A stretch of DNA of 64,000 nucleotides from Candidatus Phycocordibacter aenigmaticus (lineage in GTDB: Bacteria > Patescibacteriota > Minisyncoccia > Phycocordibacterales > Phycocordibacteraceae), in assembly GCA_045401115.1 (NCBI GenBank), contig CP174359.1, positions 355,247 through 419,246 of the forward strand. The letters are read 5' to 3'. Each line of letters begins with the position of its first letter. Position 1 is the first letter of the stretch. Under the pieces are notes generated by a model. That model did no database searches and was not told the origin of the DNA. It worked only from the letters and a program-made list of their open reading frames with translations. Made by a program: the position numbers and the translations under genes. This document shows positions 11,469-50,740 of this stretch, one piece after another.

Positions 11469-11498
11469 TTAAACGGCTCACTCCAGTGAGCCGTTTAA
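11469..11498. terminator. Bidirectional terminator hairpin (member of the AAACGGCTCAC palindromic family) between convergent typA and corA
   Basis: TTAAACGGCTCAC-TCCA-GTGAGCCGTTTAAA. Confidence 0.65.
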
Positions 11499-11514
11499 AA
11501 TAGAGCAAGTATTT

Positions 11515-12429
11515 TTAAAGCCACTTATTTTTTGAAAGTGTAAATATCAGGGTGGCCATAATTCCAGTGGTGCCAAAGAGGATGAAGTACGCGGCAAGTG
11601 GGTGTTCGCTACCGGGAAGGGCTACATTCATACCGTAAAAGCCGGTAATAACCATGGGGATGGTCAGAAGTACCGTGAGAGCAGTGAGGCGCCGGATAAT
11701 AGTATTAAGATGTTCTGTTGAGATTGCATTATACGCACTCCGAATATTAATCATAGTCCGGAGTGTGGCACGACCTGCTTCAATAAGTTGATTTGTTGAC
11801 AATATAATATCTTCAGCAACATCCTCATCTGCTTCATGGATATTTAATGCTTTCCCAACAAGTATTTTGTTAAGCACTACCTGCTGCGGTATAAGTGCGT
11901 CTAAATAGTCGCTTACTGTGCTTTCATACGAGACGAATTGGACAATATCTTTTGAAGACATCTTATCTGGCCTGGTTTTTAAACGGTTCACGTCACGTCG
12001 AATGGAACTAATTGCGACTGTATAGTTACGATTTATTTCAGAGAGTATAAGGAGTAAAAAACGTGCCTTTTGTGTTGTATAAAAATCAATATGACCTTCA
12101 CGAAATTTTTTCATGATCACGCTGTCTTCTTGTTCGATAGTCAGTACACCTTCTTTGGCAACCACCACTAGAAGGGGGACAGTACTCTCTCCTTGTGGGT
12201 AGCGCATAAAGATGTACACTGCGCCATCTTCCGCTTCAAAGCGCGGCACTTCATATGGGTCAAGAGCATCTCTGAGTGTGTCGAGATCTAAGCTGAGTGT
12301 GTCAGCAGCAGCTTGGAGTTCTTCCTCAGTTGGACGAGTGAGTTGTATCCAAGCACCTTTTTGGAACGCTTCCACAGCTCGTGGTTTTCGATAGGTAATA
12401 CTCCGTTGGTATATAGTTCGCATGAACAC
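11515..12429 (-). CDS. corA: Magnesium/cobalt transporter CorA
   Basis: YGMN signature in the penultimate TM helix, 2 C-terminal TM helices. Confidence 0.85.
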   Translation of the reverse strand: MFMRTIYQRSITYRKPRAVEAFQKGAWIQLTRPTEEELQAAADTLSLDLDTLRDALDPYEVPRFEAEDGAVYIFMRYPQGESTVPLLVVVAKEGVLTIEQEDSVIMKKFREGHIDFYTTQKARFLLLILSEINRNYTVAISSIRRDVNRLKTRPDKMSSKDIVQFVSYESTVSDYLDALIPQQVVLNKILVGKALNIHEADEDVAEDIILSTNQLIEAGRATLRTMINIRSAYNAISTEHLNTIIRRLTALTVLLTIPMVITGFYGMNVALPGSEHPLAAYFILFGTTGIMATLIFTLSKNKWL

Positions 12430-12489
12430 AGTGTATCAGGAACTTATGCAATTACAGGCATTTCTTTGACAAACTGTTGGGGGTATAGG

Positions 12490-13419
12490 ATGCTAAAGGT
12501 ATTATATATGCGGCACACACTCATAAGAATACTTCTAGTAATTATCTTCGGCGCTATTGTTACAGGTGGCGTGCTTCTTTTTAATAATTTTAACGCTATA
12601 GAGGCACACGAACTTCGCTTTGAAAATAGAGTAATTGTGAGTGAGGGGCGAGATCGTGTGTATATGCTGGGAGTTCCTAGCCAGCAGACATATGAACCAG
12701 TGCCACTTTTGGTGGTTCTTCATGGCGGTGGCTCTAGTGCTGAAGATGTACAAGAACGCACTGATTTTGAGACTGCGTATCGAGTCCTTAAAAAACCGGT
12801 CGCCATTGCGTATCCAGAGGGAACACCTGATAGACCGGAGGATGATCACAATGTATGGAATGCAGAGCGTTGCTGCGATATTGCTTTAGAAGAGGATATT
12901 TCTGATGCAGAATTTCTTTCTGCTGTAGTTACGGATATTGCCAATATAATTCCGATTCGTTCAGTGTCGGTCGTTGGATTTTCAAATGGTGCCATGATGG
13001 CAACACATTGGGCGTGTCACCCGGAAAGTCCAGTTGATTTTATGATCTCAGTAGATGGAGGCGTTAAGGTGCTGGAAAATTGTGAACGTCGTGATTGGTC
13101 GGGGATATTTTTTGGCTTTAATAATGAATTGAAACCAATTCCTGAAGGAGGTACGACTATCCATAAAAACCTTTTCACCTCACCAGAGGGGGGAGGATGG
13201 GATACAACACGTTTTCAGTGTCAACAGTCGCAGGGTGGTGAACATAGAACACGTACACAACTTATAGAGGTGTCTGGATATTATGATTGCGCTGGTGGGT
13301 CGTTTAAAGAAATATGGAATCTAAGTGATGAACACGCATGGCCCACATTCTCACTTTGGTCAGAGGTGCGCAATACGTATGAATCTTTTGAGGAATGGGT
13401 ATGGCATAGCGTGCCATAA
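12490..13419 (+). CDS. Secreted alpha/beta-hydrolase, esterase/PHB-depolymerase-like (LpqC-like)
   Basis: VLHGGGSSAED and GFSNGA (GxSxG) motifs; N-terminal TM anchor; start at Met 12490. Confidence 0.6.
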   Translation: MLKVLYMRHTLIRILLVIIFGAIVTGGVLLFNNFNAIEAHELRFENRVIVSEGRDRVYMLGVPSQQTYEPVPLLVVLHGGGSSAEDVQERTDFETAYRVLKKPVAIAYPEGTPDRPEDDHNVWNAERCCDIALEEDISDAEFLSAVVTDIANIIPIRSVSVVGFSNGAMMATHWACHPESPVDFMISVDGGVKVLENCERRDWSGIFFGFNNELKPIPEGGTTIHKNLFTSPEGGGWDTTRFQCQQSQGGEHRTRTQLIEVSGYYDCAGGSFKEIWNLSDEHAWPTFSLWSEVRNTYESFEEWVWHSVP

Positions 13420-13439
13420 TATACGATACAATACAGATT

Positions 13440-13910
13440 ATGCAGAATACCTTACGTAACCTTCGCCGTTTTGCGTTTCCCACACTTCTTATCTTTTCCG
13501 TACTGGGGATTATTAATGCTGGGTATCTAACACTCACTGCGTTTGCGGGGGTCTCACCAACGTGTAATTTTCTCCATGGTTGTGCTGAGGTTGCTTCGAG
13601 TCCGTATTCAAAAGTGTTTGGTATCCCGCTCGCGCTTTTTGGGGTGTTCTTCTACAGTATTGTTGCTGGTTTTTCGTTGTGGGGGATGATTGATAACAAA
13701 GCTCCAGTGTATAATTTTATCCTTGTGCTTACAGTGCTTGGTTTCATCCTCTCGCTGTATTTTCTTTATTTACAGGCATTTATTATTCAAGCATTTTGTG
13801 AGTATTGTCTCTTTTCGCTTTTTGATGCCACAGTGCTTTTACTTACCACTCTGTTTTTTCTCCCTAAAAAATCTTCACCTATTAAACAGAAACTTTCAAA
13901 TAATATATAA
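13440..13910 (+). CDS. Vitamin K epoxide reductase (VKOR) family membrane protein
   Basis: Loop cysteine pair (PTCNFLHGC) and CEYC CxxC active site in a TM helix. Confidence 0.7.
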   Translation: MQNTLRNLRRFAFPTLLIFSVLGIINAGYLTLTAFAGVSPTCNFLHGCAEVASSPYSKVFGIPLALFGVFFYSIVAGFSLWGMIDNKAPVYNFILVLTVLGFILSLYFLYLQAFIIQAFCEYCLFSLFDATVLLLTTLFFLPKKSSPIKQKLSNNI

Positions 13911-13949
13911 AAATACGGTATAATAACCACGTAATCGATTTTTTCTCCC

Positions 13950-14678
13950 ATGAGTATTATTGGACATATTCGCACTATTCCTGACCGTGGAAAATCAGAT
14001 GCGGTGAAAAAGCTAATCAAAGAATCTACTCCAGATTTTGACTTCTTTTTCTTGACCGTGTTGGCGGTGCTCATGGCAACGTTTGGGCTTTTGGAGAATA
14101 ATACTGCGGTGGTCATCGGAAGTATGTTGGTAGCACCAATCCTTTTTCCCATCCTCTCTCTTTCGCTTTCAATTGTAATGAGTGATTACAAGTTAATTGT
14201 TCGGGCATCGGGGACACTCATGAAGACGGTCATATTAGGTGTTTCTATGTCATTTTTTGCAACCCTTTTCCTTGGAGGTGGTGATGTACTAACACCTGAA
14301 ATCATTGCCCGTATTGAACCATCCCTTCTGTCTATTGCGATCGCTATAGTTTCTGGTTTTGCGGTTGCTTACGCGCTTGTACTCCCTGAAATGAACGAGG
14401 CGTTTCCTGGAGTTGCGGTGGCAGTAGCATTAATTCCACCATTAGCTGTTATTGGAATTGGGCTCGCGGCGTTTAATTGGACGGTTATTGCTGGAGCGGC
14501 AATTTATCTTTTGGTTAATGTGATAGGAATTATATTTGCTAGTATGCTCATGTTCTCACTGATGGATTTATATCAAAAACGTACAATCGCATCGAAAACA
14601 GCTGTTTCTGCCGACCGGGAAGCCGAACTTGAAACAAAAAAGATTCAAGAAAAAGAAGACGAAGAACTTAATGCGTAA
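13950..14678 (+). CDS. DUF389-family membrane protein
   Basis: MLVAPILFPILSLSL-type repeated hydrophobic core, C-terminal charged tail. Confidence 0.55.
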   Translation: MSIIGHIRTIPDRGKSDAVKKLIKESTPDFDFFFLTVLAVLMATFGLLENNTAVVIGSMLVAPILFPILSLSLSIVMSDYKLIVRASGTLMKTVILGVSMSFFATLFLGGGDVLTPEIIARIEPSLLSIAIAIVSGFAVAYALVLPEMNEAFPGVAVAVALIPPLAVIGIGLAAFNWTVIAGAAIYLLVNVIGIIFASMLMFSLMDLYQKRTIASKTAVSADREAELETKKIQEKEDEELNA

Positions 14679-14693
14679 TATATTCAATTCAAT

Positions 14694-15167
14694 ATGTCTC
14701 ATACTGCCATAAACACACCTGCCCCTGAATTCACTCTTTCTGATCAAAACGGTAATGTGCACACTCTTTCTCAATATAAAGGACAGTGGGTGTTGCTTTA
14801 TTTCTATCCAAAAGATGACACTCCTGGTTGTACTAAAGAGGCGTGTGCAATTCGTGATACCTTTCCAGAATTTTCTGCTATCAACGCTCAAGTGTTTGGG
14901 GTTTCAAAAGATTCAGTCGCCAGTCATAAAAAATTTGCTGAAAAATATTCACTTCCATTTCCATTACTTTCGGATGAAGACGGCACGGTGGTAGGGCAGT
15001 ATGGTGTATGGCAGGAAAAGCAGTTTATGGGAAAGAAGTATATGGGTATTATGCGCTCCTCGTTTCTTATTGATCCTGACGGTATAATCAAGAAAGTATA
15101 TGAAAAAGTCAGGCCCGAACAACACGCCGAAGAAGTCATCGAAGACCTCAAAAGTCTCAGCGCGTAA
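14694..15167 (+). CDS. bcp: Peroxiredoxin Bcp (thiol peroxidase)
   Basis: FYPKDDTPGCTKEAC peroxidatic Cys motif. Confidence 0.85.
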   Translation: MSHTAINTPAPEFTLSDQNGNVHTLSQYKGQWVLLYFYPKDDTPGCTKEACAIRDTFPEFSAINAQVFGVSKDSVASHKKFAEKYSLPFPLLSDEDGTVVGQYGVWQEKQFMGKKYMGIMRSSFLIDPDGIIKKVYEKVRPEQHAEEVIEDLKSLSA

Positions 15168-15807
15168 AGAACGTGTACAACGTATTGTCGCGTACCTTAA
15201 GAAGGCATATCCAAAACCAAAAACTGAATTACAGTATGACACTCAGTTCCAGCTTGTTGCTGCTGTAATGTTGTCTGCTCAATGCACTGATAAAGCGGTC
15301 AATAAAGTGACGCGACTGCTTTTTAAAAAATATCGTACCGTAAAAGATTTTGCTAAGGCAGACCCGGTAACATTCCAAAAAGAGATTTCCTCTATCCCGT
15401 TCTTTCGCAATAAAGCGAAAGCTATCGTGGGCGCAGCACAAAAGATTGTTGCTGAACATGGCGCGCGTGTGCCACGAACCGAAGAAGCGCTTGTAGAATT
15501 GCCCGGGATAGGATACAAGACCGCGCATGTTATTTTAGGTGAGTTGTTTGGTATTTGGGAAGGAATCGCCACCGATACTCACGTGCGCCGCTTCGCGATT
15601 CGCTTCGATCTAACCGACAACACTGATCTAACAAAGATTTCAAAGGACCTCGAAACACTTGTACCTAAGAAAGATTGGAAATATATTAATAACGGTCTTG
15701 TGCTGTATGGAAGATATATATGCCCCGCCAAAAAACATGACTGTAAAAATCACCCGCTCACCGCAATCTACCCGCCAAGTGAAACTATCTGGCCAAAATC
15801 TAAATAA
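15100..15807 (+). CDS. nth: Endonuclease III (HhH-GPD DNA glycosylase with 4Fe-4S cluster)
   Basis: LPGIGYKTAHVILG HhH motif; C-x6-C-x2-C-x5-C at C-terminus; the ATG start overlaps bcp by 68 nt. Confidence 0.85.
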   Translation: MKKSGPNNTPKKSSKTSKVSARKERVQRIVAYLKKAYPKPKTELQYDTQFQLVAAVMLSAQCTDKAVNKVTRLLFKKYRTVKDFAKADPVTFQKEISSIPFFRNKAKAIVGAAQKIVAEHGARVPRTEEALVELPGIGYKTAHVILGELFGIWEGIATDTHVRRFAIRFDLTDNTDLTKISKDLETLVPKKDWKYINNGLVLYGRYICPAKKHDCKNHPLTAIYPPSETIWPKSK

Positions 15808-16597
15808 ATTTACCCGCACTGTTCTCGACTTTTATCATAAAGAAGGTCGACGACATTTACCGTGGCGCACCACAAAAAATCCATTCCGTATCTTCGTATC
15901 TGAAGTGATGCTTCAGCAAACACAGGTTGATAGAGTTATTCCTTACTATAAAGATTTTTTAAAACGATTTTCTACGCCTAATACATTAGCAGAAGCTTCG
16001 CTGGGCGACGTACTTCGAGTATGGAGTGGACTTGGCTACAATCGGCGTGCAAAAATGATGCACCAAGCGGCCCAAGTGGTGCGTAGGGAATATGCCGGTC
16101 GTATGCCACGTTCGTATGAAGAGTTATTAGCGCTGCCGGGCGTGGGTGATTACACTGCAAAGGCAGTACGTGTGTTTGCATATAATGAGCCGGAGTTCAT
16201 GATCGAGACCAATATTCGCGCTGTGTTTCTACACCACTTTTTCCCAAATGTCGAAGCGGTGGAGGATACTGACATTATGGAATACATGGCACGGGTAGGT
16301 ATACCTGATGAGCCGCGGATATGGTATGCGGCACTTATGGACTACGGTTCGTATCTTAAAAAAAGTCATATAAATCCGTCACGAAAAAGCAAGCGCCACA
16401 TAACACAAAAACCGTTCAAAGGTTCAAGCCGCGAGGTGCGCGGCGCGTTGATACGCGCAGTGAGCGAGCATCCACAAACGCAAAAAGAGCTCCACACACT
16501 TCCTTTTAATAAAGAGAAAATCGACGTTCAGATTGCCGCTCTTTGCGATGAAGGTATGCTCGTCTACTACCGCCGCCGATACGGACTTCCTGAGTAA
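15737..16597 (+). CDS. MutY-like A/G-specific adenine glycosylase (HhH-GPD), lacks the Fe-S cysteine cluster
   Basis: LPWR...PF(Y)RIxVSEVMLQQTQV MutY N-terminal signature, LPGVGDYTAKAV HhH; no Cys-rich loop; overlaps nth 3' end by ~70 nt. Confidence 0.7.
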   Translation: MTVKITRSPQSTRQVKLSGQNLNKFTRTVLDFYHKEGRRHLPWRTTKNPFRIFVSEVMLQQTQVDRVIPYYKDFLKRFSTPNTLAEASLGDVLRVWSGLGYNRRAKMMHQAAQVVRREYAGRMPRSYEELLALPGVGDYTAKAVRVFAYNEPEFMIETNIRAVFLHHFFPNVEAVEDTDIMEYMARVGIPDEPRIWYAALMDYGSYLKKSHINPSRKSKRHITQKPFKGSSREVRGALIRAVSEHPQTQKELHTLPFNKEKIDVQIAALCDEGMLVYYRRRYGLPE

Positions 16598-16620
16598 GAT
16601 TCAAAGGGTTTGTCAGTGCT

Positions 16621-17817
16621 CTAGCGGCTGTCTTGGATGCGTTGTGCAAGTGGTACACCGATCAGTATCGTTGCTCCTATGAAACCAAAGAGCCATTGAA
16701 GGTCGGTGATTGGAAGAAAAACAAGCGCCACCACCGGAGCAGTAATAACGGCAAGCGGAGATATCATGCGGAAAATGCCGATGAGTGCCGAATCTTTCTC
16801 GGTGACCTGTTTGAAAAAGTAGCTCTCCGTAGATATCTCTATAAATGCTGCTCCAACGCGGGTAAAAATAAACGGAAGTATCCAGAGCGTGAGGTACGTT
16901 ACTGGTACAAGAGAAAGTGCGGCGGTACTAAATGAGAGTATAAAGAGGCCGGTGATCATCAGTTCTTTTTCCCCAAGAAATTTATCGGCTATGGTCCCTA
17001 AAGGGTATTCAAGTACGAGGTAGGGAATAAGGGCAATGGCGATAATGATTCCGATAACTTGCCATGAGTAGCCGGCTTGTACAAGGAAAAGAGGGACATA
17101 GATGGTATAAATAATGGTTGTTGCGCGAAATATAAGGTGGATGAACATGGTGTAGCGGACACTAGTTTGGCACGTCCATAGTGCTTTGAAACTCCTAATG
17201 AAGTGCCCGGGTTCTGGAAGGGTGGGGGTAAGTTTTTTAAGGCGTACGACGACAAGCCACAGCAAAGGTGTGAGTGCTATCGCTGAAAATATGTAGGCAG
17301 GGGTATAGTTCGTGCCAAATACAAGTAGTGACGCTATAATAGGACCCAATACTGCTCCTAAACTAAAGCCGGTAATGTAACTGCCGCGGGCGTTTCCGGT
17401 ATGTGATTCGTCTTTCACCTGTGCTTCGACATAGAGGTCGAGCAGAAAAGGGACCATTCGTGCAAAGAGGGTACGGAGCATAAAGAACAGCCCAGCGGCC
17501 ACAGTGGTGGCAGCGAACCCAAAAAATAAGATAAGTATCTGGAGAAGGAGAATTGAGATAATGAGCGTTTTCCAAACCCCGAGTCTCCCTACAATAAAAG
17601 GAGCGGCTATCATAGTTGCTATAGCCAATACTGAAGAAGCAATATAGAGGAGGCTTATTGCCTCAGGTGAGAAGAATTGACCGAGAAACGATGAGTTAAT
17701 AAAAGTGGTGGTAATGAGGCTTATCGAAAAAATAAAATTAACCCCGGCGAGAAGCATGAGGGTGTTGAAGAAGCGACGAGCGCGCGTGAAAACGGCATGA
17801 AGCCGCGACAAATGCAT
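16621..17817 (-). CDS. MFS transporter
   Basis: 12 predicted TM helices, MFS-like loop motifs. Confidence 0.7.
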   Translation of the reverse strand: MHLSRLHAVFTRARRFFNTLMLLAGVNFIFSISLITTTFINSSFLGQFFSPEAISLLYIASSVLAIATMIAAPFIVGRLGVWKTLIISILLLQILILFFGFAATTVAAGLFFMLRTLFARMVPFLLDLYVEAQVKDESHTGNARGSYITGFSLGAVLGPIIASLLVFGTNYTPAYIFSAIALTPLLWLVVVRLKKLTPTLPEPGHFIRSFKALWTCQTSVRYTMFIHLIFRATTIIYTIYVPLFLVQAGYSWQVIGIIIAIALIPYLVLEYPLGTIADKFLGEKELMITGLFILSFSTAALSLVPVTYLTLWILPFIFTRVGAAFIEISTESYFFKQVTEKDSALIGIFRMISPLAVITAPVVALVFLPITDLQWLFGFIGATILIGVPLAQRIQDSR

Positions 17818-17873
17818 ACTGCGGTAAAGTATAGCGTATCCGTGGTATATCTTTTACACACATAGTGGCATTG

Positions 17874-17899
17874 TAAAAAACCGCCTTGAGGGCGGTTTT
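17874..17899 (-). terminator. Rho-independent terminator downstream of rnj
   Basis: AAAAACCGCC-TTGA-GGGCGGTTTTT. Confidence 0.55.
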
Positions 17900-17921
17900 T
17901 AGTTTGGGCGACAGAAATATA

Positions 17922-19895: not shown

Positions 19896-19917
19896 AATAA
19901 TATCTAATGATTAATGG

Positions 19918-24264: not shown

Positions 24265-24296
24265 AATAAACGGCTCACCATAGTGAGCCGTTTATT
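24265..24296. terminator. Terminator hairpin after groEL (AAACGGCTCAC palindromic family)
   Basis: AATAAACGGCTCAC-CATA-GTGAGCCGTTTATT followed by T-run. Confidence 0.65.
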
Positions 24297-24336
24297 TTTA
24301 TTCATTTTTTTAATAGATGTTTGATATACTACAGAC

Positions 24337-24900
24337 ATGACACCTATATATATTATTCTTGCTGTTGTAGCAGTGGCACTCGGTTGGTTCATTGCTACGT
24401 ATAACGGTTTTATTCGTCTTATCAATCGAACTAAAGAGGCATGGGCTGACATTGATGTTCAGTTGAAGCGCCGGTATGACCTGATTCCAAATCTTGTGGA
24501 TACAGTAAAAGGCTATGCAACTCATGAAAAAGAAACTTTGCAAAAAGTAACTGAAGCGCGCACCAGCGCGATGAATGCAACTGGTACTGCTGAAAAGGCA
24601 CAGGCTGAAAACATGCTTTCAGACACATTAAAGAGCTTATTTGCTGTTGCAGAAAGTTATCCTGATTTAAAAGCAAATGAAAACTTTTTAGAGCTACAGC
24701 GAGAACTCTCAGATACTGAGAATAAAATTCAAGCAGCACGTCGGTTTTATAACACCAATGTGCGTGACCTTAACATTATGGTAGAGCAGTTTCCTGCAAA
24801 CATAGTTGCAGGTATCTTCAAGTTTACGCAAAATGACTTCTTTGAATTAGCTGAGGGTGAACAAGAAGCTCGAGACCCTGTTAAGGTTTCCTTTGACTAG
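24337..24900 (+). CDS. lemA: LemA family protein
   Basis: N-terminal TM, RRYDLIPNLV and NVRDLN LemA motifs. Confidence 0.85.
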   Translation: MTPIYIILAVVAVALGWFIATYNGFIRLINRTKEAWADIDVQLKRRYDLIPNLVDTVKGYATHEKETLQKVTEARTSAMNATGTAEKAQAENMLSDTLKSLFAVAESYPDLKANENFLELQRELSDTENKIQAARRFYNTNVRDLNIMVEQFPANIVAGIFKFTQNDFFELAEGEQEARDPVKVSFD

Positions 24901-24911: not shown

Positions 24912-25286
24912 ATGGGCCGCGTATACTACAATAAGTTAGTACGTGACAAAATAGAAGAGAAAATTCACAGCAAAGGTGAATCGTGTGAGGTGCGCAGCAT
25001 TGAAAATATTGCGGAATTTGAGCAAGAACTTCTCAAAAAAATAACTGAAGAGGCAACAGCACTATCCCGCGTGCGTTCTCGGAGCGAATTCCTCAATGAG
25101 TATGCTGACCTGATGGTAGTACTTGATACCCTTACCAGAGAGCTTGAGTTTTCTGAGGCAGATATAAAAACAGCGATTTCTGAAAACATTAAAGAAAAAG
25201 GAGGATTTTCAAAAAAACATTTTCTTATATGGTCTGAAGATGCTAATTATATGAGTAATGAGACTCCGCAAGGTATAAAAAAATAA
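24912..25286 (+). CDS. MazG-like nucleotide pyrophosphohydrolase (small all-alpha NTP-PPase)
   Basis: YNKLVRDKIEE N-terminus, EYADLMVVLDTL, C-terminal EKGGFSKKHFL. Confidence 0.5.
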   Translation: MGRVYYNKLVRDKIEEKIHSKGESCEVRSIENIAEFEQELLKKITEEATALSRVRSRSEFLNEYADLMVVLDTLTRELEFSEADIKTAISENIKEKGGFSKKHFLIWSEDANYMSNETPQGIKK

Positions 25287-25288
25287 CT

Positions 25289-26188
25289 ATGGCTTCACTC
25301 TATACAGATGCAGACAAAAATATACGTAAGACGTGGTTCTTAATGCTCACGTTCTTCTTTGTTGTGGTCGGCTTAGGTTGGGCTTTTTCATATATCTTCG
25401 AGAGTCCGCTTATTTTAATTGTTGCCGTAGTATTTTCTGTGGTGATGAACATTGGTAGTTTTTGGTATTCAGATAAACTAGCACTCGCTACCAGTGGTGC
25501 AAAGTCAGCAGATGAAAAAGAATTTCTTGAGGTGCATCGCATCCTTGAAAATTTATCTATCGCCACCGGTATTCCAAAGCCGCGTTTGTATATCATCAAT
25601 GATCCGGCACCGAACGCGTTTGCCACTGGTCGCGATTATAAACACGCAGCAATTGCTGTGACCACCGGATTGCTTTCTATGATGGAGCGCAGTGAACTCG
25701 AAGGGGTGATTGCGCATGAGCTTTCGCATATTAAAAACCGTGACACGTTGGTGATGACCGTGGTGGTAGTGCTTCTCGGTTTTGTGACACTCCTCTCTGA
25801 TTTCTTCCTCCGTAGTATGTTGTGGGGCGGTATGAGTGGAAATGGCGGGGGAGAGCGTGACGGCAGAATGCAAATGATTATGATTGTCGCTGGTTTTGTG
25901 CTCGCCATTTTCGCACCGATTGTGGCGCAGCTCATTCAATTTGCTATTTCACGTAAGCGCGAATTCTTGGCAGATGCATCTGGTGCATTGATGACGCGTT
26001 ACCCTGAGGGGCTTGCTAGTGCACTTGAAAAAATCGGTGCGTATAAAGCGCCTATGAAGCGTGCCAATCATGCCACCGCCCACCTCTTTATTGGGAATCC
26101 ATTCGGCGCAAAAGCAATGAAGGGAATGAATCGCCTGTTTTCAACGCACCCACCAGTAGAAGAACGTATCGCCGCGCTACTTAAATAA
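25289..26188 (+). CDS. htpX: Zinc metalloprotease HtpX
   Basis: HELSHIKNRD HExxH in a 4-TM M48 peptidase. Confidence 0.9.
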   Translation: MASLYTDADKNIRKTWFLMLTFFFVVVGLGWAFSYIFESPLILIVAVVFSVVMNIGSFWYSDKLALATSGAKSADEKEFLEVHRILENLSIATGIPKPRLYIINDPAPNAFATGRDYKHAAIAVTTGLLSMMERSELEGVIAHELSHIKNRDTLVMTVVVVLLGFVTLLSDFFLRSMLWGGMSGNGGGERDGRMQMIMIVAGFVLAIFAPIVAQLIQFAISRKREFLADASGALMTRYPEGLASALEKIGAYKAPMKRANHATAHLFIGNPFGAKAMKGMNRLFSTHPPVEERIAALLK

Positions 26189-39368: not shown

Positions 39369-41513
39369 CTATTCTGTGTCTTTTACAGGCCAAGTTGAGA
39401 CCATAAGTATATCGGAATTTTTTTTCGGCAAGCTTTGCCAAATCTCCTCCGTGATAAACGGCATAAACGGGTGAAGCACTTTCAACGAAGTGGTGAGTAT
39501 TTCGTAGAGCGCGTGCTGACGTGATAGTTTCGCCGTTTGATCCTCTCCTTGGAGAATTGGTTTTGATTCTTCAAGTATCGTGTCGGCAATTTCATGCCAG
39601 ATATGGTGATATATTTTTTCAGATGCAAGGTGGAAACGGAATGCCTCTAAATCATGAGTAATATCGGTAAGAGTGTCATAGTGTTCACCAAGACGTTCTT
39701 TATCTTTTTCAGTGTGAACAATTTCTTTTTCAAAATTAATTTCTTCGGTTTCAGTTAAGATAAAACGGGTAATATTCCACAGTTTGTTTGCAAACTTTTT
39801 ATATGCATTCACTTTATTTGGATCAAGGTTAAAATCGGTTCCAGGAGTATTACCAACCACAAGACCCATGCGTAATGCATCAGTTCCGTATGTATCGGTG
39901 ATTTCAAGCGGGCTCACAACATTTCCTTTAGACTTAGACATTTTCTGACCTTTTGAGTCGCGTACAAGTCCATGAAGATACACATACTGAAATGGTGATT
40001 TTCCAGTCATGTATATACCGAGCATCATCATACGGGCTACCCAGAACTGTAAAATATCAGCACCGGTTTCCATGACTGTAGTAGGATAATATGTCTCGAA
40101 ATCTTCACTTGTAGGGAAGTTGAGTGTTGCAAGCGGCCATTGACCTGAAGAGAACCATGTGTCAAACGTATCGGTATCTGCAACCATTTCTCCGTTACAT
40201 TTCTCGCATACGGTAACCGTGTCTTCAATATCTACTACTGCATGATCGCAACTGGTGCAGATTTTTGCAGGGATAGGGATTCCCCAAACAATTTGTCTAG
40301 AAATATTCCAGTCACGAATATTTGAAAGCCAATGGCGTAGTGTTTTTTCGTGCTGTTCAGTGAGCACTACTGTTTCTTTTGTATCAAGGGCTTCAAGCGC
40401 TTTTTTTGCAAGTGGCTCCATCTTAATGAACCATTGGTCTCGCACCTGCGGTTCAATTTCACGGTTGCATTTATAGCACACAGGTACGGTATGTGTGTAT
40501 GCCTCATCAATTTTTACTAAAAGACCTTTTTCTTTTAGTTTCTCTACAATTTTTTCTCTTGCAGTGGTAATAGGCATTCCAGAAAATTCTTCGGCAATAG
40601 GGAGAAGTTTTCCTTGCCAGTCAATAATTTGCTCCATATCGAGGTCATGGCGCTGTGCAATTTCAAAGTCAATTTCTGAATGCCAAGGAGTGATAGTCAT
40701 CGCGCCAGTCCCCATTTCAGGGTCGCCAGCTTCGTCTTTAATAACGGTCGCAGTAATTGGGCCGTTAATCCACTCAAGATCTATAGTTTGTCCGTGTTCA
40801 TATTCTGCGTAACGTTCATCATCAGGATGTACTACTACATATTTATCACCAAACTTTGTCTCTGGTCGAGCGGTACCAATAACAAATGGTCCGTATTGGA
40901 AGTAGTAAAAAGTATCAACACGTTCTTCATGACTAGTTTCAAGGTTTGAAAGTGATGTTTGATGTTTTGGGCACCAGTTTACCGTTCGTTTTCCACGGTA
41001 GAGTAATTCATCATCGCTGAGTTTTTTAAATGTGTTGTACACCAGACGTACCACCCGTTCATCAAGAGTAAATAGATTGCGTGACCAGTCACATGAGGCG
41101 CCAAGTTGTCGTACCTGGTTCTCCATAAACGATTTATTAAAAAGTGTAAAATCTAGGATTTCTTTATAGAGATCTTCACGATCCATACCAAAGCGTGTAC
41201 GCCCTTCTTTTTGGAGTTTTTTCTCGTATACGACTTGTGTTTCAAAACCTGCATGGTCGGCTCCAGGTAACCATAATGCTTGTTTACCTTGCATGCGCGC
41301 AAGGCGAATCATGATGTCTTGGAGTGTAACGAAAAGCGCATGACCTGCGTGTAGACTCCCATTTGCGTTTGGTGGAGGCATGACAATGGTATACGGCTCA
41401 GACCGCTCTCCGGGGAGATTATCGGGGTTAAAGTAACCGCTCTCTTCCCAAAGTTTGTAGATTGCCTCCTCGGTATTTTGTGGGTCGTATGGTTTTAAAA
41501 ACTTATCGTGCAT
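39369..41513 (-). CDS. valS: Valyl-tRNA synthetase (compact, lacks C-terminal coiled coil)
   Basis: PPPNANGSLHAGHA (HIGH region), KMSKSKGNV (KMSKS); 714 aa. Confidence 0.85.
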   Translation of the reverse strand: MHDKFLKPYDPQNTEEAIYKLWEESGYFNPDNLPGERSEPYTIVMPPPNANGSLHAGHALFVTLQDIMIRLARMQGKQALWLPGADHAGFETQVVYEKKLQKEGRTRFGMDREDLYKEILDFTLFNKSFMENQVRQLGASCDWSRNLFTLDERVVRLVYNTFKKLSDDELLYRGKRTVNWCPKHQTSLSNLETSHEERVDTFYYFQYGPFVIGTARPETKFGDKYVVVHPDDERYAEYEHGQTIDLEWINGPITATVIKDEAGDPEMGTGAMTITPWHSEIDFEIAQRHDLDMEQIIDWQGKLLPIAEEFSGMPITTAREKIVEKLKEKGLLVKIDEAYTHTVPVCYKCNREIEPQVRDQWFIKMEPLAKKALEALDTKETVVLTEQHEKTLRHWLSNIRDWNISRQIVWGIPIPAKICTSCDHAVVDIEDTVTVCEKCNGEMVADTDTFDTWFSSGQWPLATLNFPTSEDFETYYPTTVMETGADILQFWVARMMMLGIYMTGKSPFQYVYLHGLVRDSKGQKMSKSKGNVVSPLEITDTYGTDALRMGLVVGNTPGTDFNLDPNKVNAYKKFANKLWNITRFILTETEEINFEKEIVHTEKDKERLGEHYDTLTDITHDLEAFRFHLASEKIYHHIWHEIADTILEESKPILQGEDQTAKLSRQHALYEILTTSLKVLHPFMPFITEEIWQSLPKKNSDILMVSTWPVKDTE

Positions 41514-41595
41514 ATCGCGTAATTATAAAATTCATAATACCACTTTTGCCTTTATTTGCACCGTTATACAGAGGTGGAATGCTTTACAATCAATA

Positions 41596-41629
41596 ATATA
41601 AACGGCTCACCCAGGTGAGCCGTTTATAT
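41596..41629. repeat. AAACGGCTCAC palindromic hairpin (family copy 3) in a divergent intergenic region
   Basis: ATATAAACGGCTCAC-CCAG-GTGAGCCGTTTATAT. Confidence 0.7.
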
Positions 41630-42812: not shown

Positions 42813-42830
42813 GTGCGCGTAGCGCACTGT

Positions 42831-44003: not shown

Positions 44004-44010
44004 ATACAGA

Positions 44011-44213: not shown

Positions 44214-44287
44214 TGGGCGATACAGGACTCGAACCTGTGACCTCGTCAACGTCAATGACGCGCTCTAGCCAACTGAGCTAATCGCCC
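44214..44287 (-). tRNA. tRNA-Val (anticodon GAC)
   Basis: Reverse complement gives GGGCGATTAGCTCAGTTGGCTAGAGC, anticodon loop TTGACGT, GGTTCGAGTCCTGT T-arm. Confidence 0.9.
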
Positions 44288-44327
44288 TTATTATGGGTGG
44301 GTCCAGTGTAGCTATTTTTAAATCTAT

Positions 44328-44927: not shown

Positions 44928-45067
44928 AGAAAAATCAAGAATTGTGGATAAGGGTTGCAATTTTTAAATATATGGTGTAATTTAAGACCTGTTGCAGCCT
45001 TTAATCCAAGGCGCAGCCGATGTATAAAAATACGCGTGGGGGGATACCCCCATAAAAAGAAATCGCA

Positions 45068-45090
45068 AGCCCGTGAGGGCTTTTTTATGT
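45068..45090 (+). terminator. Hairpin plus T-run upstream of the ABC exporter (possible tsaC terminator)
   Basis: AAGCCC-GTGA-GGGCTTTTTT. Confidence 0.45.
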
Positions 45091-45114
45091 GTCGGAAAAA
45101 AGAACAATAGATAT

Positions 45115-46893
45115 ATGGATAAAAAAACAGAACATATCCCACAGCACCCACTATTATTTGTGTGGTTTGCGACAAAACCACATAAGTGGTGGTTTTTCGG
45201 TGCCTTGCTTGCCGTCACTATTGCTAATGGTATTGGTTCAAGTATCCCGTATGTATTTGGGCGTATTGTTGATGTGGCGACACAAACCTCAAGTATGGAA
45301 ACACTTAACCTCACTGGTGTGTGGTACTGGGGCGTCATGTATATAGGCGCATTGGCTGTTATGTATGTTGCATACCGCACAAGTGGTTTTTTAGGTATGC
45401 AGTTTATAACGAGAATGCAGGCTACGGGGTATCACTCACTTTTTGCATACCTCACTAAACATAGCCATACATTCTTTTCAAATCGTTTTGCAGGAGCGTT
45501 AACCAATAAAGTGGCTAACGCTGCTTTTGGTGCAGGTAACTTTGCAGAATCATTTCTTTGGAACTACTACACTACCGTCATTACGTTCCTGGTAACCGGG
45601 GCACTTATTTTCTCAGCAAGTGTTACCGTCGGATTCGTGTTCCTCGCGCTTCTTGTAGTGCTTTTTAGTATGAACTACGTGTTAGTACAGCGTCGTCGTC
45701 CGTTAGTGGTCGCGCACGCAAAAGAAAATTCAGTGCTTCGTGGTATCGCGGTTGATATTGCAAGTAATATTAACGCAGTGCAACAATTTGCACGGCGGAA
45801 ACACGAGTTGGATTTCCTCGGAGTACAAGTTACCAAAGAGCGACTAGCTGATGTAAAGCAGTGGCGGATGAGTGAGTGGGTGTTGACGCTCAACAACGTC
45901 TTAATTGTTATTGCCGCTGCCGTCATGTTGTTTGTATTGGTACGACTTCTTGCTGCGCAAAGTATTACACTCGGGCAGTTTGTGATGGTTCTTACCTTAA
46001 TGTTTGAAGTAGTTGGTGTCCTTACTTTTATAGGGAGTCTTATGAACGGCTTTATTCGGCGTTATGGTGAAATTGAGGAAGGACTCGATGAGGTGCTCAA
46101 ACCACATGGCATCACCAATTATCCCAAAGCCGGGGATCTTGCAGTAGGCGATGGTGTGCTTTCGTTTAACGATGTCGGTTTTTCCTACGGCACACACGAT
46201 GTCTTTAAAAACTTGAATCTTACGATTAAAAGTGGAGAACGCGTTGGTGTGGTAGGTGCCTCTGGTGCTGGTAAAACAACATTGGTTTCGCTTGTACTAC
46301 GCCAGCATGACGTACATGAAGGAATGGTGGAAATTGATGGTCAGAATATTCGCAAAGTGACTCTCGACTCGCTCCGCTCTGCTATTGCCGTGGTGCCACA
46401 AGAACCAGCTCTCTTCCATAGGACTCTTAAAGAGAATATTGCCTACGGCAATCCAAACGCGACCGACGAGGAGATCGTTGAAGCCGCAAAACAGGCACAG
46501 GCGCATGCGTTTATTCAAGAACTTCCTGAAGGATATGACACTTTAGTGGGTGAGCGTGGTATTAAACTTTCTGGTGGACAACGGCAACGTATCGCTATTG
46601 CGCGTGCACTGCTTAAGAATGCGCCATTTTTGGTACTTGATGAGGCAACAAGCGCGCTTGATAGCGAAAGCGAAGTTGAGATTCAAAAAGCATTCCACAC
46701 ACTCATGGAGGGGAAGACAGTGATTGCTATTGCGCATCGCCTCTCAACACTGCGCGAGATGGACCGCATTATTGTGTTTGAAGAAGGGAAGATTGTCCAA
46801 GACGGCACCCATGAGGAACTTCTCAAAGAAGAGGGAGGAGTCTATGCACGTTTATGGAATCATCAAGCAGGTGGTTTCCTCCAGGACGATTGA
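45115..46893 (+). CDS. ABC exporter, fused permease/ATPase (MsbA/lipid-exporter-like)
   Basis: 6-TM domain then Walker A GASGAGKTT, LSGGQRQRIAIARAL, Walker B LVLDEATSALD. Confidence 0.85.
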   Translation: MDKKTEHIPQHPLLFVWFATKPHKWWFFGALLAVTIANGIGSSIPYVFGRIVDVATQTSSMETLNLTGVWYWGVMYIGALAVMYVAYRTSGFLGMQFITRMQATGYHSLFAYLTKHSHTFFSNRFAGALTNKVANAAFGAGNFAESFLWNYYTTVITFLVTGALIFSASVTVGFVFLALLVVLFSMNYVLVQRRRPLVVAHAKENSVLRGIAVDIASNINAVQQFARRKHELDFLGVQVTKERLADVKQWRMSEWVLTLNNVLIVIAAAVMLFVLVRLLAAQSITLGQFVMVLTLMFEVVGVLTFIGSLMNGFIRRYGEIEEGLDEVLKPHGITNYPKAGDLAVGDGVLSFNDVGFSYGTHDVFKNLNLTIKSGERVGVVGASGAGKTTLVSLVLRQHDVHEGMVEIDGQNIRKVTLDSLRSAIAVVPQEPALFHRTLKENIAYGNPNATDEEIVEAAKQAQAHAFIQELPEGYDTLVGERGIKLSGGQRQRIAIARALLKNAPFLVLDEATSALDSESEVEIQKAFHTLMEGKTVIAIAHRLSTLREMDRIIVFEEGKIVQDGTHEELLKEEGGVYARLWNHQAGGFLQDD

Positions 46894-46969
46894 ACCCTTC
46901 TCGTTTAATTCATTTAAAAACACTACGATTATCCGTAGTGTTTTTAAATGAGTGGCGCTCCGCTCTTAA

Positions 46970-47779
46970 TTACTCTAATATATTTTCTTTTTTAATATAT
47001 AAACGTTCTATATATTCTTTATCTAAATATGTACGTAATGCCATTTTCCACCAGTCGTATACTTCATTGCCGGTATTTTTGTACAAAGTTTCAGCAGTGT
47101 GCAGCTTGCCGCCTCTCACTAATTCAGTGGCAGGAGGTAACATATACTTTTCAAGGAAAGGTGCTGTCTCGGAAACGAGTACCTGTAAGAGAGGATAGTG
47201 AGTATGTCTTTTATTGAAGTGCTTTATATAGTAATCATGCGGTATATCAATTTTCCCTAATACAGCATCAGATACATTAATAGTGAAAGCAGAGTTGCCA
47301 GCATAGAGTTCGTGTAAAGATTCGCATAATGCATCAAAACGGTCGAAAAATTTCACAACCTGACTTTCCAGTGTGTTTTTATGCATCACTTCCATAAGGA
47401 GAGAGCGATAGTTGTAGTTATGTATTTCTTGTGGAAATTGTGAGGCTAGTTCATTAATTGCATCTACCTCGTCTAAATCTACCTGTTGCAGCACCGCACG
47501 TCCCATTTTTGCTTTGTGTCCAGCTTGCACATCTCCTGTAATAATCTCAGCATCATCATGCACTAAAGCCATGGTAATAGCCTTTGTGGTATCGAAACTT
47601 TTATCAAAAAACTGTTCAATCAATGGCGCGGCTTTAGTTATCAAACATGCAACTTTAAGAGAGTGAAAATAAACCGTCGGACGGTAAAACATTGGGGAAT
47701 AAATATGAAATCGGCCAATCTGCTCTAGTGCTGCCTTCCTTCCTTGGAATGCGTCTAATTCTGTAATAGTAGAATTCAT
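46970..47779 (-). CDS. HD-domain phosphohydrolase (YfbR-like 5'-nucleotidase family)
   Basis: H...HDDAE...D metal-binding motifs. Confidence 0.65.
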   Translation of the reverse strand: MNSTITELDAFQGRKAALEQIGRFHIYSPMFYRPTVYFHSLKVACLITKAAPLIEQFFDKSFDTTKAITMALVHDDAEIITGDVQAGHKAKMGRAVLQQVDLDEVDAINELASQFPQEIHNYNYRSLLMEVMHKNTLESQVVKFFDRFDALCESLHELYAGNSAFTINVSDAVLGKIDIPHDYYIKHFNKRHTHYPLLQVLVSETAPFLEKYMLPPATELVRGGKLHTAETLYKNTGNEVYDWWKMALRTYLDKEYIERLYIKKENILE

Positions 47780-47930
47780 GTGACGGTTTCAGTATAGCAG
47801 CTTACCAATTATGAATGATTTGTATCTGATATTAAAAAATCCTATTGTCAGTGCAGTAGATCTTTATGTGTTTTCAAGGTGGGCATAACTAATTGCTTTT
47901 CATTTCTCAGCATCTAGAATAGGAATAGAT

Positions 47931-48917
47931 ATGTTTGGCCTAGAAATGACTATTATCTGGATGATTCTAGGTTTTCTCTTCGCTGCCTATTCTGTTATTG
48001 GCAATGACAGCATTCAGACGTTGGGGACATTCATTGCCTCCAACCAAAAAACCAAATGGTATTACCTCTGGGCCTTCTCGGCCCTTATTTTAATTGTGAC
48101 GCTTTCCATAAGTTTCTTCGCCAATAATGGTGACATTGCGTCGGGTAGGCTTGCAAAAATTCCATTCGTTGAGATTCAGTGGTATCACGCTCTGGCACCG
48201 CTCGGGTTAGTTCTTTTGACACGTTTCGGTATTCCGGCTTCAACCTCGCTCTTGGTATTGAGCGCCTTCGCTTCTTCGATGGTCTTCAGTAGCATCTTGC
48301 TGAAGTCGGCGTTAGGGTATGCTATTGCCGCAGTAGTCGCGTATGTGCTCTGGATTATTATCTACCGTTGGGATAATAAAAAGAATCCCATCGCAAAGAA
48401 TAAAGAAAAATTGTGGCGAGTCTTTCAGTGGATGGCGACAGGATTCCTTTGGTATACCTGGCTTTCGCACGACATTGCCAACATCGCTGTATTCTTGCCG
48501 CGCGAATTGAATCTCTGGCAGTTCGGCGCTGTGTTGGCGGTGTTTGTGGTTGGTCTTGCCTACATTATGTATAACCGTGGTGGCAAGATACAGAACATTG
48601 TTCTTGAGAAGAGTAATACCAACTACCTGCGCAGTGCCACACTCATTGATCTTACGTTCGGTATTATCCTGCTTGTGTTCAAAGAGATGAACAATATACC
48701 CATGTCTACGACCTGGGTATTTATTGGTCTCCTCAGTGGTCGGGAGCTGGCGATGTATTCGCGCATCGTGGAATATAAACTCAAGCATGTATTCCCGATC
48801 GTGGGGAAAGACTTACTCCGACTCTTATTCGGTTTAGCCATTTCCATTCTTATTGCTTTTGCTATACAGCATGCAACCGCTATTGGTGCGTTTGTAAATC
48901 TTGTTTTTGCCGGGTAG
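47931..48917 (+). CDS. PiT-family inorganic phosphate/anion permease (putative)
   Basis: GNDSIQTLGT and GIPASTS / PMSTTWVF repeats matching PiT GANDVAN and GxPxSTTH motifs. Confidence 0.55.
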   Translation: MFGLEMTIIWMILGFLFAAYSVIGNDSIQTLGTFIASNQKTKWYYLWAFSALILIVTLSISFFANNGDIASGRLAKIPFVEIQWYHALAPLGLVLLTRFGIPASTSLLVLSAFASSMVFSSILLKSALGYAIAAVVAYVLWIIIYRWDNKKNPIAKNKEKLWRVFQWMATGFLWYTWLSHDIANIAVFLPRELNLWQFGAVLAVFVVGLAYIMYNRGGKIQNIVLEKSNTNYLRSATLIDLTFGIILLVFKEMNNIPMSTTWVFIGLLSGRELAMYSRIVEYKLKHVFPIVGKDLLRLLFGLAISILIAFAIQHATAIGAFVNLVFAG

Positions 48918-49014
48918 TAACACTCCCGTCGAGGAAATTTCTGGATATGGTCCACTGAACCAACTTTCTGAACTTTATACAGACCGTAGCGGTGTTGCTA
49001 TGAGTATCCAAAGG

Positions 49015-49578
49015 TTAGAGATTTTTCAATCGATTAAAGATGTTAAGAAATAGTTCGTCTCCGAAACTAGTATCAGTGTGATTTTCAGGATGGAATTGAA
49101 GTGCATAGATTGGTCGCGTTTTGTGTCGTATTACTTCTGGTCCATGATCGGACTCGGCAAGCACCTCAAACTCAGCTGGTAGCTCGCCTGTACCCCAACG
49201 ATGGTTTTCAAATGCTTGGAATGTTGGTGTTCTGTAAAATAACTCGAGATCTTTTAAAACATGTATTTGAACAGTTCCAATTTCGTGTTCATCAAGTTTT
49301 TTTAGAACCCCTCCTAAAGCATGAATAATAAGTTCATAACCAAAACAGATACCAATGATAGGTTTTGTAGTGTTTTGTATAAATTCAATTTCGGCTTTGT
49401 ATTTCTCCTCGTTACCGTAGAGTGGTCCCAAACTACTTCCTGAAAGCACAACTACATCAGCATCTTCCGTATTTTTTTCAGAAAATGCATCAAAGCAAAG
49501 TACCGATTCTTCACCAGGGATAAGTTGCTTTAACTTTTCTTGAAGTGTCGTGCCGTTATCTACTAGAAGGACATTCAT
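49015..49578 (-). CDS. Class I glutamine amidotransferase (stand-alone GATase1)
   Basis: GICFGYEL nucleophile elbow, LQFHPE motif. Confidence 0.75.
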   Translation of the reverse strand: MNVLLVDNGTTLQEKLKQLIPGEESVLCFDAFSEKNTEDADVVVLSGSSLGPLYGNEEKYKAEIEFIQNTTKPIIGICFGYELIIHALGGVLKKLDEHEIGTVQIHVLKDLELFYRTPTFQAFENHRWGTGELPAEFEVLAESDHGPEVIRHKTRPIYALQFHPENHTDTSFGDELFLNIFNRLKNL

Positions 49579-49654
49579 TTTTCTATTTTCTCATGGTTCG
49601 GAAACCTTTCTTTCTCTAAAATTGAAAAAGGCCGGCTAAACCATGAAAAATTTG

Positions 49655-49726
49655 TGACCCCACGGGGAATCGAACCCCGATTTTAAGCTTGAAAAGCTCA
49701 CGTCCTAACCGTTAGACGATGGGGCC
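49655..49726 (-). tRNA. tRNA-Glu (anticodon TTC)
   Basis: Reverse complement gives GGCCCCATCGTCTAACGGTTAGGACG, anticodon loop TTTTCAA, GGTTCGATTCCCCG T-arm. Confidence 0.85.
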
Positions 49727-49803
49727 AAAAGTGACCAAAAGGACCTTTAAAATATAGCATTTTGAGCAGAAAATGCTAGGATTTCCTGAGTGAGTTTCTC
49801 ATT

Positions 49804-49887
49804 GGAGGAGTGCCCGGAATTGGTAACGGACCGCTCTCGAAAAGCGGCGCGGGAAACCGCTTGTGGGTTCGAGTCCCATCTCCTCCG
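49804..49887 (+). tRNA. tRNA-Ser (anticodon CGA), class II
   Basis: GGAGGAG acceptor, 3-bp D stem, anticodon loop CTCGAAA, variable arm, GTGGG-TTCGAGT-CCCAT T-arm. Confidence 0.8.
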
Positions 49888-50083
49888 CAAATGTCTAAGA
49901 AGACGCGAGAGCGTCTGATTAGCAACAATTGCGAGAAGGAGATGAGGCGAGAAAGACGGAGGCCGCGAAGCCGTGACGATAGTACACGTGGCCGAGTCCG
50001 GGCAGGAGCCACTTAGTATTTTGTGAGCAAAGCGAGACAAAATAGTTAGTGAGTTGACGCCGAGTCCCATCTCCTCCGCAAAT
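49888..50083 (+). mobile_element. tRNA-Ser(CGA)-flanking structured element C, ending in a 23-nt direct repeat of the tRNA 3' end
   Basis: CGAGTCCCATCTCCTCCGCAAAT at 49871-49893 and 50061-50083; GNRA hairpin 49901-49916; 16-mer CGAGTCCGGGCAGGAG 49993-50008. Confidence 0.5.
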
Positions 50084-50395
50084 TGTTATACTGAAAAAAT
50101 GAAATCGTTAGTGAAATATAGTCCTGGAATAATTTTGAGTATTTGGCCCTTTTTTGTCATAAACGAACTAGGGATTGGAGTCGTTGCTCTGGTTCTTATA
50201 AATTTTTGGATAGGAATTGGTGTTGGGGAATATATTGCTTCACATGAGTGAAGTAGAAAAAATGAAACCTAGATTTAATTACAACTCCACCAACTACAGT
50301 TTGCTGTAAAAGTGAGTGAAAGGGGACATCTCCATAAAACCAAAATTTACTAACACACCTCCACATAGAAAGTGTAAATGTCGAAAGCGGTAGTA

Positions 50396-50632
50396 TTATC
50401 GCTTTAATAACGCACCAGCAGATGCTGTTGCACCAAGTATAAATAGAAACGAGAATAGGTCGTCAATGTCATTATAAATTCCTGCCTCATGAAGTGCCTC
50501 AAAGATACCTAACTTACCGCCGGTTGAACTATCAATTGCGCCAAGAGAAAAAGCGCCAAAAGTTCCTGTAAGTAAAACATTACCAATAGATCTTCTTACA
50601 TGAGAGCCTTCGTTGTTGTTTACGTGTTCCAT
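50396..50632 (-). CDS. Hypothetical small protein
   Basis: 78-aa ORF, Gly/Ala-rich hydrophobic stretches. Confidence 0.35.
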   Translation of the reverse strand: MEHVNNNEGSHVRRSIGNVLLTGTFGAFSLGAIDSSTGGKLGIFEALHEAGIYNDIDDLFSFLFILGATASAGALLKR

Positions 50633-50710
50633 GTTTTTCTTGGTTATCTACTATAATTTCATAGTACCATTCTCGTTGATATTGTGTAGCGTCACACCTA
50701 TAAACGGCTC

Positions 50711-50740
50711 AATGCATTGAGCCGTTTATTACACACCCTT
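50711..50740. repeat. AAACGGCTCA palindromic hairpin (family copy 4) in a divergent intergenic region
   Basis: ATAAACGGCTCA-ATGCAT-TGAGCCGTTTAT. Confidence 0.7.

Follow-up and report, generated by a model that had tools for sequence, protein, structure and literature searches.

Perfectly palindromic hairpins in Candidatus Phycocordibacter aenigmaticus, possibly bidirectional terminators multiplied in the manner of REP sequences in some Patescibacteria

A stretch of 64,000 nucleotides of the Candidatus Phycocordibacter aenigmaticus genome (contig CP174359.1, positions 355,247 to 419,246; hereafter the window) contains four copies of a palindromic hairpin with the consensus (T)AAACGGCTCA - 3 to 9 nt - TGAGCCGTTT(A), usually set inside a longer palindrome of an A-run and a T-run. 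These hairpins belong to a true sequence family and are not four independent terminators; the family is real and previously undescribed, no description of it having been found in the literature searched. The favored reading, to which a probability of roughly 0.55 is given, is that they are bidirectional intrinsic terminators that have spread in some Patescibacteria in the manner of repetitive extragenic palindromic (REP) sequences.

The arm pattern AAACGGCTCA-N6-TGAGCCGTTT has four exact matches in the window (11471-11496, 24268-24293, 41600-41625 and 50702-50727), compared to none expected from 100 dinucleotide-preserving shuffles, and with their flanks all four are perfect palindromes of 30-34 bp. 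The copies and their neighboring genes, which were identified by Pfam, are as follows.

11467..11500, copy 1: TTTTAAACGGCTCACT-CC-AGTGAGCCGTTTAAAA, between the convergent genes typA (end 11435) and corA (end 11515)
24265..24296, copy 2: AATAAACGGCTCAC-CATA-GTGAGCCGTTTATT, then TTTATTTTTATT, about 30-32 nt after the groEL stop codon and 43 nt before lemA, the two genes being in tandem
41596..41629, copy 3: ATATAAACGGCTCACC-CA-GGTGAGCCGTTTATAT, between the divergent genes valS (start 41513, minus strand) and a CAP-domain gene (start 41739, plus strand)
50700..50729, copy 4: ATAAACGGCTCAATG followed directly by CATTGAGCCGTTTAT, a 30-bp palindrome with no unpaired center, 32 nt upstream of an HhH-GPD glycosylase gene (50760, plus strand)

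A first-pass annotation of this DNA had located copies 1, 2 and 3 correctly but had set copy 4 about 10 nt too far to the right (50711-50740). Its description of the centers (TCCA, CATA, CCAG and ATGCAT) is accurate, and of the identical arms of 10-11 nt that it reported, 10 nt are the same in all four copies while the eleventh base (C/G) is common to three. It had placed copies 1 and 2 where terminators are expected, as the Pfam identifications bear out, and the other two in divergent regions, which is correct for copy 3, faced by no annotated gene end, and less certain for copy 4, the context of which is divergent only if its left neighbor, an unannotated 78-aa open reading frame (ORF) at 50396-50632 on the minus strand with no Pfam match, is real. 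Two small ORFs with hydrophobic stretches and no Pfam match, the 78-aa ORF and one of 65 aa (50054-50251, plus strand), lie between tRNA-Ser and copy 4, and whether copy 4 is truly divergent depends on their being real genes. A covariance model of the hairpin family, built from 56 instances, matched only the four copies in the window (43-53 bits), and its next matches, at 15 bits, were generic A-run/T-run hairpins; since there are no intermediate scores, the family is discrete, without a graded series in this genome.

All four window copies are predicted to fold on both strands (-17.5 to -25 kcal/mol, z-scores -3.7 to -9.1; for copy 1 the RNA value is -22 to -23 kcal/mol on either strand), with stems of 13-16 bp and 4-nt loops, as expected of an intrinsic terminator, the GC-containing stem of which has 5-14 bp or more and a short loop. 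The other intergenic hairpins of the window are also perfect palindromes that pass from an A-run through a C-rich arm, a short loop and a G-rich arm to a T-run, and they sit at convergent or tandem gene ends; judged by sequence, the build of the family is that of the other, unrelated terminators predicted in this genome. Family copies prefer the 3' ends of genes: of the copies that could be classified, 89% have one or more 3' ends facing them, a facing 3' end lies at a median distance of 40 nt versus 88 nt for a facing 5' start, and convergent regions hold 25% of copies versus 17% of background intergenic regions, whereas divergent regions hold 11% of copies versus 17% of background. At least six of the eight bases on one side are T in 70% of 209 copies, with a consensus tail of TTTATTTT.

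The strongest single indication of a terminator role comes from the groEL site, where each of four relatives (L242-L245) has an ordinary palindromic terminator, its stem differing from one relative to the next, 20-45 nt after the groEL stop codon and where the window has copy 2, which was scored as terminator-like and has a good tail (seven T of eight). A family copy also follows groEL in L032 (GroEL 59% identical) and in L068 (52%). The location expected of a terminator is thus occupied by copies 1 and 2, is not that of copy 3 and is probably not that of copy 4; the lack of a gene end at copy 3, and probably at copy 4, argues against a pure terminator, and the copies in divergent regions appear to fit a dispersed repeat better. 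The first-pass annotation had argued that a purely structural terminator would tolerate arm changes, which is true, and such changes are observed; it would have regarded arm drift with compensatory changes, if all copies lay at 3' ends, as the mark of ordinary terminators. Compensated variants do exist and most copies, though not all, face a gene 3' end, so that terminator function is well supported for copies 1 and 2. The overwhelming identity of the arms across distant lineages needs an explanation beyond terminator function.

An instructive comparison is provided by the end of Escherichia coli's S10 operon, of which rpsQ is the last gene (PMC3616713).

L241 449-472 (NZ_AP018784.2, rpsQ/rplN): E. 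coli hairpin with arms identical to those of the window family

In 5426 of 5426 complete E. coli genomes, AAACGGCTCA-GAAA-TGAGCCGTTT followed by ATTTTTT is present between rpsQ and rplN. This terminator shares with the window family its identical arms and its succession of A-run, stem, loop, stem and T-run, but it is a single orthologous site, whereas the hairpins of Patescibacteria are multi-copy and occur also away from gene ends.

Several observations identify the whole hairpin as the conserved unit. Of the 125 exact half-sites in 442 kb of DNA from Patescibacteria, 120 are paired, and the unpaired ones, which are at about chance level, are decayed hairpins or coincidences in coding sequence. 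One of them lies in the window.

10817..10826, minus strand: lone half-site, read as TGAGCCGTTT on the plus strand, inside the typA coding sequence

This half-site is probably due to chance and outside the hairpin family, and the extra 7-mers in the window are coding coincidences. The loop varies from 3 to 9 nt (mode 5), and the spacing reaches 16-18 nt in two loci, one with a long loop (L065) and one with a duplicated left arm (L141). Among the near-variants, nine have one compensated change and nine have one uncompensated change. The compensated arm variants (GGGTCA/TGACCC, AAAAGGCTCA/TGAGCCTTTT and CAACGGCTCA/TGAGCCGTTG) occur in some cases within one genome, GGGTCA/TGACCC sharing its bin with canonical copies, and in L182 two paralogous copies that arose by segmental duplication differ by two compensated changes. 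The outer flank is variable in sequence, yet its positions 2-4 pair in 35-44 of 56 copies versus 21-25 expected. Its only conserved feature, itself symmetrical, is T at -1 and A at +1 (43-45 of 56 Patescibacteria copies, about 80%), a closing pair that is conserved although it interrupts the U-tract. The paired half-sites, variable loop, compensated arms and covarying outer stem together argue that the hairpin is the unit, and speak against both a dimeric operator and a classical uptake sequence. A candidate outer motif, GGCTTAA, was dropped because it was found in 14 of 300 flanks versus 23 of 300 for the reversed control. No Rfam family matched at its gathering score, and the permissive matches over copy 3 were to generic hairpins only.

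An exact-match scan of one genome per species gave at least 112 loci, and a scan of metagenomes gave more than 120 further loci; viral contigs contained no exact match to the hairpin pattern. About half of the exact-match loci listed are from Patescibacteria, with several multi-copy bins: among the matches listed, two Saccharibacteria bins have at least six copies each and one labeled WS2 has at least seven. The remaining listed loci are single matches in unrelated bacteria, flanked by AAAA/TTTT and mostly at the same orthologous site within a genus. The arm stem would therefore be an occasional ordinary terminator in most bacteria and, on the sequences scanned, a family only in Patescibacteria. 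The identical core is found in bins labeled Saccharibacteria, Yanofskybacteria, Wolfebacteria, Paceibacterota and others as well as in the presumably Parcubacteria-type source of the window, the ValRS, TypA and GroEL of which have their nearest named relatives in Kaiserbacteria, Paceibacterota and Minisyncoccota.

Among close relatives the distribution is patchy and lineage-specific. Nine loci of relatives at 73-86% protein identity (about 130 kb) contain no copy, compared to about eight expected at the density of the window. In one relative with a 96%-identical TypA (L118), typA is likewise followed by a copy, with an ordinary terminator as a separate element at its side; compared with copy 1 of the window, this copy differs in loop and flanks and keeps 22 of 22 arm bases. 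In L120, a relative at 80%, typA and corA are separated by only 3 nt, with no hairpin. In another lineage, with a TypA only 69% identical, a copy again follows typA. The closest relatives are rearranged at the valS/CAP-gene junction where copy 3 lies. A copy precedes lemA in the window and in one Saccharibacteria locus.

The 64 kb of the window contain four copies, a density of about 1 per 16 kb, and some contigs have up to 4-5 copies in 3-8 kb: in L237 (1487-4108) a copy or near-variant comes after each of five genes in a row (five in 2.6 kb), and in L155 (176-4073) a copy or near-variant follows almost every gene (four in 3.9 kb). Among the copies in contigs of this kind is a CAACGGCTCA/TGAGCCGTTG 'dialect'. 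Within one genome, copies have loop and flank features in common, and extra partial arms or tandem copies are found nearby. The genes between nearby copies are ordinary housekeeping operons (gatCA, uvrB). Separately, two metagenome contigs carry a 1.1-kb segment, bounded by two identical copies, that a third contig lacks (L125 736-1927 versus L205 3146-3171; also L224), and identity between the contigs changes from 99.5% to 67.6% exactly at the hairpin, a switch that could be due to recombination at the repeat or to an assembly artefact.

The candidate enzymes for the spread of such hairpins are Y1 transposases that resemble the REP-associated tyrosine transposases (RAYTs). In two sister lineages with GroEL 84-86% identical to that of the window, a gene for a Y1 transposase of 223-229 aa occupies one syntenic slot, between lemA/mazG-like and an M48 peptidase gene (L242 10728-11480, L243 3855-4590); the window at the same slot (25286-25289) has no Y1 gene and a gap of 2 nt. 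Both proteins score above the Pfam cut-off for Y1_Tnp, their best NCBIfam match is REP_Tyr_transpos, below the cut-off of that model, and they have the HUH motif (NHFHL) and the YIHxNP tyrosine region. Each gene is flanked by two copies of a palindrome specific to its lineage (for L242, AAAGAGTGAGATG-N-CATCTCACTCTTT; for L243, CCTCTGGAAGCG-N-CGCTTCCAGAGG) of the form AAA-core-N-core-TTT, with outer stems that differ between the two copies yet are complementary. Judged from these letters, they share the build of the window family, in which the core is conserved and the outer stem varies but stays complementary. A search of about 1.4 Mb of loci by tblastn and a three-sequence hidden Markov model (HMM) found Y1 transposases only in L242, L243 and L182, the gene in L182 being 13 nt from a family-like variant. 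The duplicated segment in L182 (510-2076) consists of a gene fragment, a small membrane-protein gene and the hairpin, with the Y1 transposase between the two copies; that transposase is flanked by 13-bp inverted repeats (GGTGTCAGGTACC/GGTACCTGACACC).

Classical REPs are imperfect, oriented palindromes that are specific to a species. The hairpins of the window family resemble the REP/REPIN elements of Proteobacteria, which go with RAYTs, in being short extragenic palindromes, multi-copy in several bins, that lie mostly just behind genes and in convergent regions and in places form clusters or are duplicated in part; REPs can act as terminators or stabilizers of mRNA, and a Y1 transposase flanked by two copies of a palindrome is present in the sister lineages. 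The suggestion of the first-pass annotation that the hairpins are a dispersed palindrome akin to REPs or bacterial interspersed mosaic elements offers the best available account of arm identity: the family recurs in many genomes, is patchy among close relatives and is accompanied by partial arms and tandems, and RAYT-like Y1 genes in sister lineages are flanked by palindromes of the same build.

According to the mechanism proposed here, a copy transcribed from either strand would fold into a stable hairpin followed by a UUUAUUUU-like sequence, and the folded copy would serve as a two-way Rho-independent terminator or as a protective hairpin at the 3' end. The arms would be identical because the copies multiplied as a REP-like repeat rather than evolving independently, the spread being probably due to a RAYT-type Y1 (HUH) transposase that acts on the single-stranded hairpin. 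Copies may be retained where they serve as terminators or are harmless, the latter explaining those between divergent genes, and insertion of the core into small hairpins that already existed would account for the variable, complementary outer stems. Termination at the copies and multiplication of the AAACGGCTCA family by a RAYT-like Y1 enzyme are inferences, as is any reason why the same core occurs in distant classes of Patescibacteria; a symmetrical core shared between classes might reflect horizontal exchange of the system or a host factor that recognizes the sequence.

A number of results weigh against this proposal. The copies are nearer to 3' ends, but over background the bias in position is modest (p = 0.066, from crude ORF calls). 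In tandem contexts the T-tails have no direction bias (28 versus 19, p = 0.24). The tails of three window copies are mediocre (four, six and five T of eight in copies 1, 3 and 4, respectively), and the T-tract of copy 1 is weak on both sides (four and three T of eight). In contrast to REPs, the core and flanks in the window are perfectly symmetrical, with no orientation and no GTAG-like 5' tag, the copy number is modest, and the identical core is found in different classes and is not species-specific; no RAYT is tied to this hairpin sequence. The palindromes of L242 and L243 differ in sequence from the window family and were seen only as a flanking pair. The first-pass annotation had proposed looking for a cognate RAYT or transcription factor, and the window contains neither: its 64 ORFs of at least 80 aa include no Y1 transposase and no helix-turn-helix (HTH) regulator by Pfam, and its Pfam matches are housekeeping only. 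Nor was a Y1 gene flanked by the window hairpin family found in the approximately 1.4 Mb of loci searched.

Other explanations were compared with the same evidence. A related reading, in which the hairpin is a sequence-specific signal across Patescibacteria classes, either a horizontally exchanged REP-RAYT-like system that installs two-way terminators, perhaps by insertion into hairpins already there, or a hairpin-shaped signal of self-recognition or uptake in bacteria that scavenge DNA obligately, is speculative and improbable. It is unlikely that the copies are ordinary intrinsic terminators maintained independently, with a stem shared by coincidence or convergence and no repeat dynamics. 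The same 20 bases do form single orthologous terminators at the S10 end in E. coli and in Chryseobacterium, Flavobacterium, Bacillus and Rhodoferax, and the architecture and position of the family match those of the other terminators of the genome; but four identical arms of 10-11 nt among about 20 hairpins in 64 kb would not arise by chance, several Patescibacteria bins are multi-copy whereas the others among the matches listed are mostly single and apparently orthologous, loops and flanks are alike within a genome, and there is no gene end for two of the window copies to terminate. The possibility that a conserved RNA-binding protein or nuclease reads the hairpin sequence-specifically, so that it marks mRNA 3' ends and is kept by selection without transposition, is a little harder to accept. 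The identity of the arms across classes with GroEL only 52-59% identical suggests a sequence constraint beyond pairing, as does the retention of the T/A pair that closes the core, but the lack of the hairpin in close relatives speaks against a conserved host factor of ancient origin, compensated variants are tolerated, and the analysis turned up no candidate protein.

Competence machinery is encoded widely among Patescibacteria, and competent cells might favor DNA with TGAGCCGTTT, inverted pairs of which would double as terminators in the manner of the Neisseria DNA uptake sequence (DUS) or the Haemophilus uptake signal sequence (USS). In support of this, conservation of the core extends across lineages, with variants that resemble 'dialects', and the window family resembles the uptake-sequence terminators of Neisseria and Pasteurellaceae, in which a fixed sequence of about 10 nt forms both arms of a sizeable share of terminators, with long stems, poorer T-tails and conservation beyond the species (PMC1852404). 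Uptake sequences are found in about 55% of high-confidence terminators of Neisseria and 17-29% of those of Pasteurellaceae, and they number at least about 1000 per genome, mostly single and also inside genes (PMC1852404). In the window family, single copies are essentially absent, it is pairing and not sequence that compensated changes preserve, and close relatives lack the motif altogether; an uptake signal is accordingly considered quite improbable, and in its classical form it was rejected for the absence of singles. The least probable explanation, with very little weight, is a site on double-stranded DNA for a dimeric DNA-binding protein, such as the operator of a global regulator or the site of a nucleoid protein. 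The first-pass annotation had offered such a site as its other suggestion, and it would suit the perfect dyad symmetry and invariant arms, the two window copies between divergent genes near promoters, and the copies before lemA in the window and the Saccharibacteria locus. The variation in spacing, from 3 nt to the 16-18 nt of L065 and L141, is incompatible with a fixed half-site geometry, the variable outer stems covary, copies are found mostly downstream of genes rather than at promoters, the distance to putative promoters is inconsistent, and the window has no HTH regulator to bind such a site; variable spacing and compensated arm changes, some within one genome, make a dimeric operator unlikely, and it was rejected.

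Several known sites were also rejected. CIRCE/HrcA, parS, attC, LexA and CRP-type sites do not match the family in sequence, and the spacer of the family is variable. The integron attC site is an imperfect palindrome of 57-141 nt with R''/L''/L'/R' boxes and extrahelical bases, located after each cassette of a one-directional array next to intI, whereas the family element is 26-40 nt, perfectly paired and without RYYYAAC/GTTRRRY boxes, and has housekeeping genes between its copies; L237 is superficially array-like, and no integrase was seen there.

The window contains a second family of hairpins, AACACCC-N0-9-GGGTGTT, with three copies versus none expected in shuffles.

5281-5321: second hairpin family, at a gene end
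55875-55899: second hairpin family, at a gene end
60981-61022: second hairpin family, between divergent genes

A related fourth hairpin (56559-56583) has ACACCCA/TGGGTGT in common with these, and gene ends are the general location of this set, as of the main family. The copy at 60981-61022 is a 42-bp perfect palindrome (CACACCCCCTGGTCAACACCC followed directly by GGGTGTTGACCAGGGGGTGTG) with no unpaired center and with TTGACC on both strands, and lies between a divergent S1-domain gene (start 60833, minus strand) and a metallo-beta-lactamase-fold gene (start 61081, plus strand). The motifs TATACT (lemA, 24325-24339; HhH-GPD gene, 50747-50762) and TATAAT (valS, 41513-41527) are found 6-8 nt upstream of ATG, a proximity that suggests leaderless mRNAs. 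The lemA motif TTGATATACT is kept in the relatives L242 and L243, with the variants TTGATATAAT in L244 and TTGTTATACT in L245.

Patescibacteria have very small genomes that are usually thought to be poor in repeats and mobile elements, and to our knowledge almost nothing is known of how their transcription units end. If the favored reading is true, the hairpin family would be a practical marker of operon ends in Patescibacteria genomes, REP-like repeats and RAYT-like enzymes would be active in the phylum, and there would be short conserved sequences at which these genomes recombine, as the 1.1-kb segment present or absent between contigs may illustrate. An exchanged REP-RAYT-like repeat or an uptake signal, should either prove true, would be the first such element described for the phylum, and if a specific protein recognizes the hairpin, it would provide a genetic handle in organisms that are only now becoming tractable.

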